Under the pieces are notes generated by a model. The model made no database searches. It worked only from the letters and a program-made list of their open reading frames with translations, and was not told the origin of the DNA. A DNA stretch of 64,000 bases from an uncultured Bacilli bacterium (lineage in GTDB: Bacteria; Bacillota_I; Bacilli_A; RF39; UBA660), in assembly GCA_944359625.1 (NCBI GenBank), contig CALVSW010000005.1:10339-74338 (forward strand), written 5' to 3'. Position 1 is the first letter of the stretch; the number at the start of each line of letters is the position of its first letter. The translations under genes and the position numbers were made by a program. Shown piece by piece: positions 32,990 to 61,438 of the stretch.

Positions 32990-33913
32990 ATGAAGAAATT
33001 TTTAAAGAATAACTATTTAGTAATTATTATTTTTATAATATGTATATTTTTAGGTTATTTTTACCTTTTTGGTGAATTTAAATCTACTTATTTAAATAGT
33101 GATGATATTAATAATGCTTTTGAAATGATGTGTCAAAGTGATGAAATGAAGACATCTAAAGAATGTCAAGATTATTTTATAAATGGACCTTATGAAGATG
33201 CCGAAAGAGATGTTTTATTTATTTTTTATTATCTTCTTGATTCTTCTCCTTTACGTATTTTAAGTTTTACAATGTCCTTTTTAATTTCATTAGTATCTTT
33301 AAAAAAAATAAGTACAATATTTAATAACGGTCAAACTAAATTATATCTAACACGTGAAAAATATTCTGTTTTTATTAAGAAAACGTTATTAAATTCTTTA
33401 AAATATATATTTTTATTTCCCATAATTTTTATTATTCTTTATCTTGGTTGTTTATGGTTAGGAAAAGGTAATTTTGATGTTAGCTACTTAATTGATAGCT
33501 CTGCTTCAATGATACCTTATCAGTATGCTAGTTTAGGACCTTGGTTTATTGTTTTATTTACTTATAGTTTAATTATTAACGTAATTATTTATATATTATT
33601 GGGTTTAATTTCTTTAAGAATAGTTAATAATTATTACGTTAGTATTATTATTTCTTATATTTTATTTTTAGTAATGGCTATATCAGGAGAAATCTTTGGA
33701 GAATTAATTTTTTATGAATGCTTTAATATAGATATTCATAACTATTTGAATTTTATAGGTATTTTTGAATTTTCTGATATACCAAACTATTATTTATATA
33801 CTGGTATTAGAATATTAATTATATTTATATTAACGGGTATTATATATCTATTATATAGAAATAAAGAAAAATTAATAAATTATACTGAAAAAAAGTGGGA
33901 GATTTTAAAATGA
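32990..33913 (+). CDS. Putative ABC transporter permease
   Basis: Six TM segments; overlaps the ATPase gene; extremely AT-rich. Confidence 0.65.
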   Translation: MKKFLKNNYLVIIIFIICIFLGYFYLFGEFKSTYLNSDDINNAFEMMCQSDEMKTSKECQDYFINGPYEDAERDVLFIFYYLLDSSPLRILSFTMSFLISLVSLKKISTIFNNGQTKLYLTREKYSVFIKKTLLNSLKYIFLFPIIFIILYLGCLWLGKGNFDVSYLIDSSASMIPYQYASLGPWFIVLFTYSLIINVIIYILLGLISLRIVNNYYVSIIISYILFLVMAISGEIFGELIFYECFNIDIHNYLNFIGIFEFSDIPNYYLYTGIRILIIFILTGIIYLLYRNKEKLINYTEKKWEILK

Positions 33914-34557
33914 TATTGAAAATAAATGGATTAGTTAAAAATTTTAAAAATGAATCAGTTCTTAATGATATAAATTACGAATTTGTATCAGGAAATATTT
34001 ATGGGATTTTAGGTCGAAATGGTTCAGGTAAAAGTGTTTTGTTAAAAATTATTTCCGGACTTTATAAACAAGATCAAGGAAAAGTTTTATTTGATGAAAT
34101 AAATTATAATGATAGTAATGATTTTCCTAAAGATGTAGGTATATCTATTGAAGATCCTAGTTTTTTAAATGATTTAACTGGTTTTGATAATTTAGAATTA
34201 CTCGCTTCTATTCAAAATAAAATAGGTAAAGATGATATAAATAAAATTTTGGATATTGTAAATTTAACAGAAGAAAAGGATAAGAAATATAAAAAATATT
34301 CTTTAGGAATGAAACAAAAATTATCTCTAGCTCAAGCATTTATGGAAAATCCTAAAGTAATTTTATTAGATGAACCATTTAATGGTATTGATCGAATATC
34401 TGTTGATAAAATTAAAAATTATTTAATAAATTTAAAAAAGAAAGATGTTTTAATAATTATTACTACACATATTAAAGATGATATAGCAGGATTATGCGAT
34501 GTTCTTTTAGAATTAGAAGATGGAAAGATAAAAAATTATGAAGGTAGTAAAGAATAG
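33910..34557 (+). CDS. ABC transporter ATP-binding protein
   Basis: GRNGSGKS, YSLGMKQKL, LDEPFNGID, TH. Confidence 0.93.
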   Translation: MILKINGLVKNFKNESVLNDINYEFVSGNIYGILGRNGSGKSVLLKIISGLYKQDQGKVLFDEINYNDSNDFPKDVGISIEDPSFLNDLTGFDNLELLASIQNKIGKDDINKILDIVNLTEEKDKKYKKYSLGMKQKLSLAQAFMENPKVILLDEPFNGIDRISVDKIKNYLINLKKKDVLIIITTHIKDDIAGLCDVLLELEDGKIKNYEGSKE

Positions 34558-35908
34558 CATAAAATATTTTTTTAAAACCGATTGGTCTAAATGGATTATT
34601 GTTTTTATCTTTTTAATATCATTATTAAGTTTAGGAGCATATCGTGATATAGTTGATTTATTTACTGCTTTATTACGTAGTTATTCTGATAATTCTTTTA
34701 TTGCATTTATATTTTTAATTTTGGCGGTAAATACTTTATATTTATATAAAACACTTTTTTATAGTAATAATTATTTAATCAGAACCAATAATCGATTTAA
34801 ATATTTAAAATATACGTTATTGACAAATTTAATTATAAGTTTTATTTATTATTTAATATCATTTTTATTTGTTTTACTTTTTGCTCTTTTTAAAATAAAG
34901 GGTGGTATTGATTTAAATATTATCTTTAATTATGGTATACTAGGATTTCTTTATTTTTTATATCATTATTTCAAAGTATTTATTATTTTATTTGTAATTC
35001 TTAACATTTCTAGATATATATTATTAACATTTAAAAGTCTTACATATGTTGCATTTATCTTTATCTTAATTTTATTTATTATTAACTTTAATTTTCCAAT
35101 CAGTTTAGATCCAAATGCTATTTATAAATTTAATATATTATTTCCGTATTATTTTTTTCCTTTAAATTTTAATAGTTTAAAAGTTGATGCTACATATTTA
35201 TTAGGAGAACTATGTATTTTATATTCATTTAATATTATTTTAAAAAATTATTATTTATATATTAAAAAAGTTAAGTTTAAATTATTAAATCTAAAATTTT
35301 TGAAATTAGAATACTATAATTTTATTAAAGATAATATAAAGTATTTTATATTGTTCTTTATTATCGAAGCTTTTATGATTTTAACATATTCATTTTTAAC
35401 TCCTAATAATAATGTTATGTATTTTTCTTTAAATTTAATTAAAGCTCAAAATGATATATTTATTATTCTTAATAAATTATTTAGTATTTTGTTTATAATT
35501 TTTATTATTATTTTAAATTTGAAATATATTTATGGTTATGGTAAAGCTTATTTGATACTGAGAACAGATAATAAAAAAGTATTATTTTTTGTTATCTTAT
35601 CTATTATTTTAAATATACTTTTTATCAATTTATTTTTGCTTTTTATAGGAATTATTATTTCTTTTATCAGAGGGTTGAATATTAGTTTCAATTTTAATAC
35701 TTTTGTTAATATATTATTTCTAGAAATATATATCGGTTTATTAATTAATTTTATTTTCTATAATAAATATCGAATATTATGTTTCTTTAGTTTAATATTT
35801 ATTATTTTATTTATAATATCGTTTAAATTACAATTAATTAACATTTTATTATTTGCAATTATATTGTTATTAAGTATAAAATTATTGAAAATTCAAGATA
35901 TGGAGTAA
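34538..35908 (+). CDS. Putative ABC transporter permease (possible double-permease fusion)
   Basis: About 12 TM in two halves, each with YLIRT/YLILRT; very AT-rich. Confidence 0.6.
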   Translation: MKVVKNSIKYFFKTDWSKWIIVFIFLISLLSLGAYRDIVDLFTALLRSYSDNSFIAFIFLILAVNTLYLYKTLFYSNNYLIRTNNRFKYLKYTLLTNLIISFIYYLISFLFVLLFALFKIKGGIDLNIIFNYGILGFLYFLYHYFKVFIILFVILNISRYILLTFKSLTYVAFIFILILFIINFNFPISLDPNAIYKFNILFPYYFFPLNFNSLKVDATYLLGELCILYSFNIILKNYYLYIKKVKFKLLNLKFLKLEYYNFIKDNIKYFILFFIIEAFMILTYSFLTPNNNVMYFSLNLIKAQNDIFIILNKLFSILFIIFIIILNLKYIYGYGKAYLILRTDNKKVLFFVILSIILNILFINLFLLFIGIIISFIRGLNISFNFNTFVNILFLEIYIGLLINFIFYNKYRILCFFSLIFIILFIISFKLQLINILLFAIILLLSIKLLKIQDME

Positions 35909-35980
35909 TTGTATTTTTAACTTGCAATTACTCTGTTTTTATGGTAGTATCTAGGTGCAATTAATTTTTGGTTGCATTAA

Positions 35981-36020
35981 GTGGGAGGGAAATGCGGAAT
36001 GCCCTATACCACTTACACGG
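35981..36020 (+). promoter_or_regulatory. rplK leader, L1-binding-type hairpin
   Basis: GTGG-GA-GGG...CCC-TATA-CCAC followed by CACGG, as seen upstream of rplK in Firmicutes. Confidence 0.7.
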
Positions 36021-36048
36021 TAAAATATTTTTATAGGAGGTGTTTTTC

Positions 36049-36642
36049 GTGGCTAAAGAAGTCGTAAAGAAAATTAAATTACAAATTCCAGCCGGCAAAG
36101 CAACACCAGCTCCTCCAGTAGGAACTGCACTTGGACCAGCAGGAATAAATTTACAAGATTTTTGTTCAAAATTTAATGATGCTTCTAAGGATAAGATGGG
36201 CGATATTGTTCCATGTGAAGTTACAGTTTATGATGATAGATCATTTGATTTCATCTTAAAAACTCCACCAACTCCTTTCTTAATTAAGAAGGTTGCTAAG
36301 ATTCAAAAAGGAAGCCAAAAGGGTGCAAATCAAGTTGTTGCAACTCTTACTAAGGATGAACTAAGATCAATAGCTGAAATGAAACTACCTGATTTAAATG
36401 CTTATGATATTGAATCTGCTATGACAATAGTAGAAGGTACTGCAAGAAATATGGGTGTTGCAATTAAAGGCGTTAATGATGCTGAATTAGCAACTCAAGG
36501 TGCCGAAGCTGCTAAAGAAGAAGCAGAAGCTAAGAAGCGTGAAGCTGAATTAGAAGAAATGACTGAATCTGCTAAGGATGCTAAATTAGGCGAAGTTGAA
36601 GTTATATCAGATAAAGATAAAGACGAAACTGAAGAAAATTAA
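36049..36642 (+). CDS. rplK: 50S ribosomal protein L11 with acidic C-terminal extension
   Basis: KLQIPAGKATPAPPVGTALG...GTARNMG; GTG start after AGGAGG; 197 aa. Confidence 0.96.
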   Translation: MAKEVVKKIKLQIPAGKATPAPPVGTALGPAGINLQDFCSKFNDASKDKMGDIVPCEVTVYDDRSFDFILKTPPTPFLIKKVAKIQKGSQKGANQVVATLTKDELRSIAEMKLPDLNAYDIESAMTIVEGTARNMGVAIKGVNDAELATQGAEAAKEEAEAKKREAELEEMTESAKDAKLGEVEVISDKDKDETEEN

Positions 36643-36690
36643 TTTTATATACATTCCGCTAATAAACCACGATTAGAAAGGAAGTTAAAG

Positions 36691-37386
36691 ATGAAAAAAG
36701 GTAAGAAGTATGTGGAAGCTTCTAAATTAGTTGATAGTTCTAAACTTTATTCTAAAGAAGAAGCTATTAAGTTAGTTAAAGAAACTGCTATTGCTAAATT
36801 TGATAGTACAATAGAAGTTGCTATTAAACTAAACTTAGATACTAAAAAGGCTGACCAACAATTAAGAGGTTCACTTGTATTACCTAATGGTACTGGCAAA
36901 ACTAAAAAAGTTTTAGTAATTGCTAAGGGTGAAGCTGCTAACCTTGCTCGTGAAGCTGGCGCTGATTATGTTGGCGATAATGACATGATTGATAAAATTC
37001 AAAAAGAAAATTGGTTTGATTTTGATGTTATCGTTGCAACTCCAGATATGATGGCAAGTTTAGGTAAAATTGGTCGTGTTTTAGGCCCTAAGGGATTAAT
37101 GCCTAATCCTAAGACTGGTACAGTAACTGCAACTCCTGATAAAGCTGTTAGTGATATTAAAAAAGGTATGGTTACATATAAAACTGATTCATATGGTAAC
37201 GTACATACTGTAATCGGTAAGGCTTCATTTAGTGATGATAAATTATTAGAAAATTTAGTTTATGTTTTTAATACAATTGTTAAGGTAAAACCTACTTCTG
37301 TAAAGGGAAACTATATTGAAAATATTTCAGTATCATCTACAATGGGACCTGGAGTTAAAGTTGATAAAAACTCATTTGAAAAATAA
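36691..37386 (+). CDS. rplA: 50S ribosomal protein L1
   Basis: [32 protein letters not shown]. Confidence 0.97.
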
Positions 37387-37410
37387 TTAATTTAGTTAAA
37401 AAAGCAATTA

Positions 37411-37505
37411 CCAAAGACAGTAAGTGTAAAAGTAAATCTTACCGAGGGAAAACTTGATTTAAGTATTCTTTACTTGATTAAGACTCCCTTTTGGGAGCTT
37501 TTTTA
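37411..37505 (+). promoter_or_regulatory. L10 leader with attenuator-like hairpin
   Basis: CCAAAGACAGTAAG...CTTACCGAGGG core, then ctccc-tttt-gggag plus T run upstream of rplJ. Confidence 0.8.
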
Positions 37506-37532
37506 TAAATATAATAGAGGGAGATAATTTCT

Positions 37533-58513: not shown

Positions 58514-61438
<2,925 letters not shown>

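Follow-up and report, generated by a model that had tools for sequence, protein, structure and literature searches.

Autoregulation of the L11 operon by ribosomal protein L1 is a classic system, and long-distance translational coupling is familiar from sequestor/anti-sequestor riboswitch platforms and from the long-distance pairings of RNA phage genomes. Here we describe a 64-kb stretch of contig CALVSW010000005.1 from an uncultured Bacilli bacterium (the window; all positions are those within it), in which the leader of rplK (encoding L11) carries an L1-type hairpin whose apical loop is complementary to the spacer between rplK and rplA (encoding L1), ~650 nucleotides (nt) downstream. The known L1 sites in mRNA, as covered in the L1 passages of a 2024 review, are all self-contained irregular stem-loops (PMC10931766). 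The L1 leader is described in the corresponding passages of Fu et al. (2013) as a stem of 6–12 base pairs (bp) whose internal bulge includes G-A and an unpaired A; the same passages give dual L1 sites for more than 40% of complete Firmicutes genomes, binding of L1 at 25–50 nM by both sites of G. kaustophilus, and co-transcription of rplK and rplA in B. subtilis (PMC3616713). The second L1 site before rplA, which an earlier note on this DNA had given as usual for Bacilli, is thus documented for the Firmicutes.

A long-range pseudoknot is on record for another ribosomal-protein operator, that of E. coli L20 (rpmI-rplT), where it stands beside a second stem-loop site (PMC10931766, PMC3616713). 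As outlined in the passages on L20 in these two papers, that operator resembles the present locus in that the partner of a hairpin loop is a strand far off in the same mRNA. The protein, the rRNA mimic and the phylum differ, and in E. coli the pseudoknot itself is the protein site and lies at the regulated ribosome-binding site, whereas here it is the second cistron that has the distant strand next to it, and L1 may or may not bind the pseudoknotted form. A full-text literature search found rplK, rplA and pseudoknot together only in PMC3616713 and PMC10931766, where the passages concerned place pseudoknots in other operators. The L1 operator itself is known; the split, pseudoknotted architecture that would replace its second site is not.

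Leader hairpin and spacer of the rplK–rplA locus

The elements of the proposed operator and the two genes are as follows.

35978–36015, + strand: L1-site hairpin of the rplK leader, comprising helix P1 (UAAGUGG/CCACUUA), a GA bulge, upper helix S1, a 3' internal loop UAUA and a 12-nt apical loop
35994–36001, + strand: 5' strand of the predicted helix S2, GCGGAAUG (the octamer GCGGAATG), in the apical loop and abutting the CCC of S1
36049–36642, + strand: rplK (L11), 197 amino acids (aa) with a C-terminal extension of ~55 aa; the looped-out segment is ~650 nt
36652–36659, + strand: 3' strand of S2, CAUUCCGC (the octamer CATTCCGC), remnant of the 3' strand of a second L1 site and predicted anti-Shine–Dalgarno strand
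36677–36693, + strand: rplA ribosome-binding site AAAGGAAG and ATG (36691)
36691–37386, + strand: rplA (L1; Pfam Ribosomal_L1, E 2.5e-64), the presumed regulator protein

The leader hairpin lies 33 nt 5' of the rplK start and consists, in order, of GTGG (35981–35984), GA, GGG (35987–35989), a loop of aaat followed by GCGGAATG, CCC (36002–36004), TATA, and CCAC (36009–36012). The fold GUGG-GA-GGG/CCC-UAUA-CCAC that had been read from the letters is borne out by the sequence and by RNAfold (minimum free energy -12.8 kcal/mol, z -2.2). The loop octamer at 35994–36001 is indeed the exact reverse complement of 36652–36659 in the 48-nt spacer, which continues TAATAAA-CCAC (CCAC at 36667–36670), all as the earlier note had it. 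The hairpin has the properties by which an L1 leader is recognized: it adjoins rplK upstream, it has an internal bulge with G-A in its stem, and it mimics helices 77 and 78 (H77/H78) of 23S rRNA.

In the organism's own 23S rRNA, viewed in the Rfam large-subunit rRNA alignment, H77 is GGUGG/CCACC and is followed by a 2-nt bulge, a 3-bp H78 base and the remainder of H78, with a conserved GGA just 5' of the returning H78 strand and then a 12-nt internal loop. The leader shares with this L1 stalk (H76–H78) the GUGG/CCAC helix, the 2-nt bulge, the 3-bp H78 base, the GGA 5' of the H78 3' strand, and the longer internal loop on the 3' side. In the rRNA, however, the continuation of H78 is a local hairpin, whereas its counterpart in the mRNA would be filled by a strand from 650 nt away. 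On this comparison, the rplK leader is a mimic of H77 and the H78 base, and the predicted S2 takes the place where H78 continues in rRNA. The organism's own 23S L1 stalk (60660–60720) reads GGUGG-UA-GAC against the Rfam consensus GGUGG-GA-GgC; the leader keeps the consensus-like GA and GGG, and the mRNA site is in this respect nearer to the consensus than the rRNA site of the same organism.

The spacer contains the 3' strand of a second site (CCG-loop-CCAC, 36656–36670) just 5' of the rplA Shine–Dalgarno sequence, and no GTGGGAGG-type 5' strand (GUGG-GA-GG) was found there, nor in the spacers of the 75 distinct members of the clade assembled below; the earlier observation that only the 3' half is present therefore holds for 75 of 75. 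A complete spacer site stands right before the rplA Shine–Dalgarno sequence in 21 relatives outside this clade. Among the 63 genome-derived sequences of the clade, L087 alone departs from the spacer CCAC, with UUAC in its place; the metagenome sequence L129 also lacks it. As in the L1 sites described in the relevant passages of Fu et al. (2013), a leader stem with a GA bulge mimics the 23S L1 site 5' of rplK, and the spacer element derives from a second site (PMC3616713); unlike in those, the second site here is without its 5' strand, and its remnant would reach over the rplK open reading frame (ORF) to pair with the first site's apical loop.

Conservation and covariation of the loop–spacer pairing

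Relatives were gathered by an L1 search (30 loci from 41 genomes searched, 39 of them with a match), an L11 scan of genome contigs (80 loci) and a metagenome scan (80 more). Leader and spacer were taken from the L1 search and the genome-contig scan wherever the locus held both genes. Exclusion of the exact duplicates L031, L034, and L037, and of L011, in which the leader is cut by the contig end, gave 63 distinct leader and spacer pairs with spacers lacking GUGG-GA-GG; 12 further distinct half-site sequences from metagenomes bring the set to 75. In a tree of concatenated L11 and L1 proteins (73 rows), the half-site sequences form one clade of 64 rows with a Shimodaira–Hasegawa-like approximate likelihood ratio test (SH-aLRT) value of 99, which is consistent with one loss of the second-site 5' strand. 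Leaders were anchored on the invariant GGA and spacers on the invariant UCC using our own scripts, because a MAFFT alignment of the 63 sequences right-justified the leader-loop gaps and misaligned the spacers of L039 and L052.

The octamer occurs twice in the window, once per strand, exactly at the leader loop and the spacer (0.43 occurrences expected), and the S2 duplex has a predicted energy of -13.8 kcal/mol. When the 91-nt leader and the 48-nt spacer were shuffled by mononucleotide (n = 5000), at least 8 contiguous Watson–Crick pairs arose in 469 and a duplex energy at least as good as that observed in 145. An 8-bp match had been put forward as unlikely by chance, which overstates its weight; the match in the window is weak when taken by itself, and for this reason the case for pairing rests on the relatives.

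Among the 63 genomes, pairs 1–5 (mostly G-C, C-G, G-C, G-C, and A-U) are formed in every one, pair 6 in 60 (U-A in 34, A-U in 14, C-G in 6, and U.G in 6, with C.A in 3), pair 7 in 57, pair 8 in 34, and pair -1 in 24. The contiguous helix measures 6 bp in 4 genomes, 7 bp in 10, 8 bp in 40, and 9 bp in 9, compared to means of 1.7–2.6 bp for registers slid by 1–3 bases. The 12 metagenome sequences have 5–9 bp, and of all 75 sequences, 69 have a helix of at least 7 bp, five have 6 bp, and L125 has 5 bp. A length of 7–9 bp is attained through different pair combinations in different clades: AGCGGAU(G) types have an extra pair on the 5' side, and UGCGGAUUU types extend the 3' side.

Compensating changes were found at pairs 1, 2, 6, and 7, along with the conserved complementarity. 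In the sister genomes L039 and L052 the core, invariant elsewhere, has changed on both strands: pair 1 is U-A in place of G-C, and pair 2, elsewhere C-G, is G.U in L039 and U-A in L052. Pair 6 is A-U in genus g1, to which the window belongs, where others have U-A, and C-G in a six-genome clade; pair 7 is G-C in L049 and L062. In L129, pair 8 is A-U, the rplK stop codon lies within the helix, and the downstream CCAC is gone. By parsimony, pair 1 involved one leader and one spacer change and pair 2 two of each, with an unpaired state at neither, and at pair 6 the leader changed four times and the spacer six times, including two steps into a mismatch. The stem branches that carry double changes each represent ~1% of the length of the clade tree (total 6.63).

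When spacers were dealt at random among genomes, the observed pairing was reached in 0 of 10000 permutations for the 63 genomes, for 39 haplotypes, and for 23 clade representatives, a procedure that ignores relatedness and for which the 23 representatives were hand-picked from the tree; the paired cells at variable positions numbered 301 of 378 in the 63 genomes, against a permuted mean of 250. Simulation of the spacer column along the protein tree, which keeps relatedness and the observed number of changes and uses rough self-set base frequencies, reached the observed pairing in 74 (pair 1), 47 (pair 2), 1 (pair 6), and 443 (pair 7) of 20000 runs, and the counts were lower still at three times the rate of change. 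In 59 of the 63 genomes, no 14-nt window between the end of the leader hairpin and the end of rplA forms a better duplex with the loop 10-mer than the spacer site does; the mean for the spacer site is -12.2 kcal/mol, 3.9 better than the runner-up. Among the exceptions to Watson–Crick pairing at pairs -1 to 8, 24 cells are G.U on the sense strand and 7 are A.C; because G.U outnumbers A.C, the pairing is indicated to be one of coding-strand RNA rather than of DNA or antisense RNA. Conservation, compensatory change, and the permutation and simulation controls together argue for the long-range pairing that the earlier note had proposed, with the whole of rplK looped out.

The 5' strand of S2 lies 0–1 nt from the CCC of S1 in nearly all genomes (3 nt in L073), and 3–10 nt link the G-run to the loop strand. 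In leader-only ensembles of the 63 genomes, the loop strand is predicted to be unpaired with a mean probability of 0.72 and GUGG/CCAC to be paired with a probability of 0.86. The locus has the properties of a pseudoknot, in that a hairpin loop pairs, with covariation, with a strand outside the hairpin, the two stems adjoin, and the linker is long enough. The layout is that of an H-type pseudoknot, in which S2 is modeled as stacking end-on-end on the 3-bp upper helix S1, and the long "loop" comprises the remaining leader, rplK, and the start of the spacer.

This differs from the proposal that the leader supplies the missing 5' half of a canonical second site. The loop offers GCGG..., not GUGG-GA-GG; it pairs with a GC that is unpaired in complete sites, and the spacer CCAC gets no partner in the loop. 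Furthermore, the canonical CCG is lost in L039 and L052 and CCAC is lost in L129, with the loop pairing kept in all three. Judged from these comparisons, the structure would be a pseudoknot helix that stacks on the leader's own L1 site instead of a second site built anew.

The motif GCGG(A/U)N is already present in the leader loop of 8 of the 10 family-level relatives that have a complete spacer site, and is there complementary to spacer N(U/A)CCGC over 5–7 nt (U-A in three genomes, C-G in three); it is lacking in L021 and L024 and in 11 of 11 more distant Bacilli. Since relatives with a complete spacer site already carry the complementary loop motif, the long-range pairing seems to have arisen before the 5' strand was lost. 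The spacer strand of those relatives belongs to a local L1 site, with which the long-range pairing would compete.

Three short metagenome contigs (L119, L125, and L130) are of mixed type, the leader being of one kind and the spacer or L11 length of another; in L130, a leader of the half-site clade goes with an L11 of 139 aa and a spacer site that is complete. These contigs may be assembly chimeras or real recombinants.

Candidate toggle at the rplA Shine–Dalgarno sequence and rival explanations

Ensembles were computed for the 63 spacers, from 30 nt before the rplK stop to 20 nt into rplA. In the free spacer, the rplA Shine–Dalgarno sequence is predicted to be unpaired with a probability of 0.39 and paired with the S2 3' strand with a probability of 0.56. 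When the S2 3' strand is blocked, Shine–Dalgarno accessibility rises to 0.77; it stays at 0.39 when an 8-mer upstream of the S2 strand is blocked, and likewise at 0.39 for a blocked 8-mer in the rplA start region. In the window alone, blocking the S2 strand lifts the predicted accessibility from 0.21 to 0.69, and the masking pair is UUCC (36654–36657) with GGAA (36680–36683). The end of CCGC keeps a set distance to the Shine–Dalgarno sequence, namely 16 nt in 44 genomes and 19 nt in the 14 genomes of genus g1, whereas the distance from the rplK stop to the S2 strand ranges from 0 to 38 nt in the clade; given this contrast, the S2 3' strand appears to be placed relative to the rplA ribosome-binding site. 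Unwinding of S2 by the terminating ribosome was also considered as a general mechanism and rejected on these same distances.

We posit that the leader loop GCGGAAUG pairs with CAUUCCGC ~650 nt downstream to form S2, and that the spacer strand toggles between two partners: pairing with the leader loop would open the rplA ribosome-binding site, and local pairing would mask that same site, S2 and the local Shine–Dalgarno pairing being mutually exclusive. The local partner of the spacer strand would formerly have been the 5' strand of the second site and would now be the rplA Shine–Dalgarno sequence. L1 bound to the leader hairpin would bias the choice, such that one sensor in the 5' untranslated region (5' UTR) would set the translation of both rplK and rplA; binding of L1 would disfavor S2, and excess L1 would shut rplA off. 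We favor L1 opposing S2 because only then would excess L1 turn rplA off through the predicted masking. As in riboswitch-type coupling, one strand would either mask a Shine–Dalgarno sequence or pair elsewhere; the difference is that the anti-sequestor here would be the loop of a hairpin of protein-binding type in the 5' UTR of another cistron. The switch between L11 and L1 translation that the earlier note had envisaged fits this modeled competition for the rplA Shine–Dalgarno sequence.

An L1 leader hairpin with a long-range S2 pseudoknot that acts as a toggle for rplA translation is the best explanation that we can offer, and we regard its chances of being right as even. A somewhat more tentative proposal concerns its history and design, namely an operator split across a cistron, in which the leader hairpin is aptamer-like and its apical loop serves as the anti-sequestor for an rplA platform 650 nt away, and in which the pseudoknot replaced a second, independent L1 site in a family-level clade of gut Bacilli, the pairing having predated the loss.

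Several points weigh against the toggle. Besides the unexceptional match in the window, independent compensatory events, as counted by sequence comparison, are few, and a sign test on phylogenetically independent pairs, with 4 and 2 usable pairs and hence too few contrasts to decide, was not significant (p 0.5–1). There are uncompensated C.A mismatches at pair 6 from two events (L032; L074 and L078), pair 7 is mismatched in 6 of the 63 genomes, pair 8 is formed in only 34, and the spacer site is not top-ranked as the partner of the loop in 4 (L032, L052, L074, and L080). L125 has a different leader and only 5 bp, on a 2.4-kb metagenome contig that may be chimeric. The local masking structures are weak (-1.7 to -5.7 kcal/mol) and predicted only, and a translated ORF of 594 nt lies between the two strands, so that passing ribosomes could impede closure. 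For the near-invariant spacer CCAC, whose former partner GUGG is gone and which the model leaves unexplained, neither a partner nor a role was found. The metatranscriptomic contigs presented below come from libraries that may contain DNA, and they show neither transcript ends nor structure nor a single transcript. Finally, the formation of the helix in the cell, the binding of L1 to the leader, and its disfavoring of S2 are inferences, and L1 might favor S2 rather than oppose it.

The last of these points opens the way to the main rival, which is the opposite coupling. In such a cooperative composite operator, S2 would lengthen the H78-like helix to a quasi-continuous 11 bp, L1 would prefer and lock the pseudoknot, and rplA, its initiation region kept within an L1-bound complex, would be repressed by tethering or entrapment instead of masking. 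It draws support from the same covariation and geometry, S2 takes up the position in which rRNA has the rest of H78, and folds of distant Bacilli have local helices of 5–8 bp where the half-site clade has 3 bp; in addition, the L1–rRNA complex is given as more stable than the L1–mRNA complex in the L1 passages of the review (PMC10931766). However, S2 formation is predicted to expose, not hide, the rplA Shine–Dalgarno sequence, and to judge from the geometry the rplA ribosome-binding site would lie at the end of S2 that is far from the L1 contacts, past another hairpin, where a steric block is not obvious; we consider cooperative locking unlikely. Strand exchange, which would let the spacer CC-GC-UAAUAAA-CCAC pair with the leader GUGG-GA-GG and displace the leader 3' strand, so as to give a canonical second L1 site with rplK as its loop and the loop match as secondary, would account for the spacer 3' strand being almost identical to that of complete sites in relatives and for a CCAC that is near-invariant in the clade without a local partner. 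It leaves the loop–spacer covariation unexplained, though, and loop pairing is kept in L129 without CCAC, in L087 with UUAC, and in L039 and L052 without the canonical CCG; all bases involved are invariant, so that covariation cannot test this model, which we judge improbable.

It could also be that there is no interaction, and that the complementarity is a coincidence between an rRNA-mimicking GGA in the loop and the UCCGC that is canonical for the 3' strand of an L1 site. The GGA/UCC core is invariant, with a plausible separate constraint on each side, and both the commonness of the single-window match and the non-significant sign test are in keeping with this. Against it, flanking and core positions change on both strands along the same short branches, independence is rejected by the permutation and tree simulations, and the helix is held at 7–9 bp by differing pair combinations across clades, which makes coincidence a poor prospect. 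An inverted repeat acting in DNA, e.g., half-sites for a DNA-binding protein flanking rplK, would suit the two octamers as an exact inverted repeat. It is highly improbable given the excess of sense-strand G.U over A.C exceptions, the placement of the elements within a hairpin loop of a known RNA operator and at constant spacing to a Shine–Dalgarno sequence, and a separation that varies with the lengths of rplK and the spacer.

Neighboring features and biological meaning

Further features of the locus are as follows.

35922–35950, + strand: possible promoter (TTGCAA, 17 nt, TGgTAGTAT extended -10), read by eye and of low confidence
36016–36051, + strand: second leader hairpin, which encloses the rplK Shine–Dalgarno sequence AGGAGGUG (36034–36041) and the GUG start (36049)
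36659–36676, + strand: small spacer hairpin CUAAU/AUUAG predicted by RNAfold, with loop AAACCACG including CCAC (36667–36670)

The candidate promoter scores under the threshold of a promoter scan; the motif TGGTAGTAT is found again 5' of the leader in relatives of the genus, and one RNA-library contig begins at 35976. RNAfold gives -23.6 kcal/mol (z -2.3) for 35960–36052, and in the second leader hairpin of the window and relatives a CNCG right after the L1 hairpin pairs with CGUG at the rplK start. That start, set in the window at GTG 36049 from an alignment with relatives (stop codon 36640–36642), is GUG in 60 of the 63 clade genomes, and the preceding AGGAGGUGUUUUUC is almost invariant. Pairing of the spacer CCAC with the rplK start region (GUGG) was rejected since CCAC persists in three genomes in which rplK starts with AUG. 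Although the stem of the small spacer hairpin is weak (-1.7 to -2.6 kcal/mol), compensatory variants of it occur in L015, L033, L047, and L114; the idea that this hairpin forms a circularly permuted L1 site with the Shine–Dalgarno sequence was dropped, since the GA bulge would be on the wrong strand.

The rplK product matches Ribosomal_L11_N and Ribosomal_L11 in Pfam (residues 9–139), beyond which the C-terminal extension of ~55 aa (36472–36639) is rich in Ala, Glu, and Lys. L11 has 192–204 aa in every member of the half-site clade; outside it, the extension is also found in L018, L023, and L024, and other relatives have 139–147 aa, with one at 161. Consumption of the lost 5' strand by the extension was considered and rejected, as L018, L023, and L024 have both the extension and a complete site.

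Upstream of rplK (33895–35908) are an ORF for an ABC-transporter-like ATPase and an ORF for a very hydrophobic protein of 456 aa with no Pfam match; secE-nusG, the usual genes upstream of rplK, are not found in this stretch directly 5' of the gene. After rplA, an L10 leader (RF00557, 49 bits, above the gathering score) occupies 37393–37512, with a terminator-like hairpin at 37484–37497. The Rfam scan of the window recognized the L10 leader and an rRNA operon; for 35880–36760, Rfam 15 at E up to 10 gave two chance-level matches only, and no L1-leader family was seen among the matches, although Rfam may hold none. A contig from an RNA (metatranscriptomic) library covers 35976–36592 with 3 differences, a second covers 36435–36670 with 0 differences and spans the rplK stop and the S2 strand, and one from a relative covers 36483–36809 with 26 differences, from the end of rplK to the start of rplA. 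These contigs are compatible with a single transcript that contains the leader hairpin and the spacer, without proving one; some runs have contigs that do not cover the whole stretch, which has no bearing either way.

For this clade of gut Bacilli with small genomes, the loop–spacer complementarity kept in their sequences suggests one ribosomal-protein sensor for two genes. If the proposed pairing is real, it would be the first long-range tertiary element reported for the L1 operator, and would illustrate how an operon with two sensors can turn into one with a single sensor while its second gene stays under control. The locus would also be a small natural model in which to study how RNA strands can pair over an ORF that ribosomes are translating.

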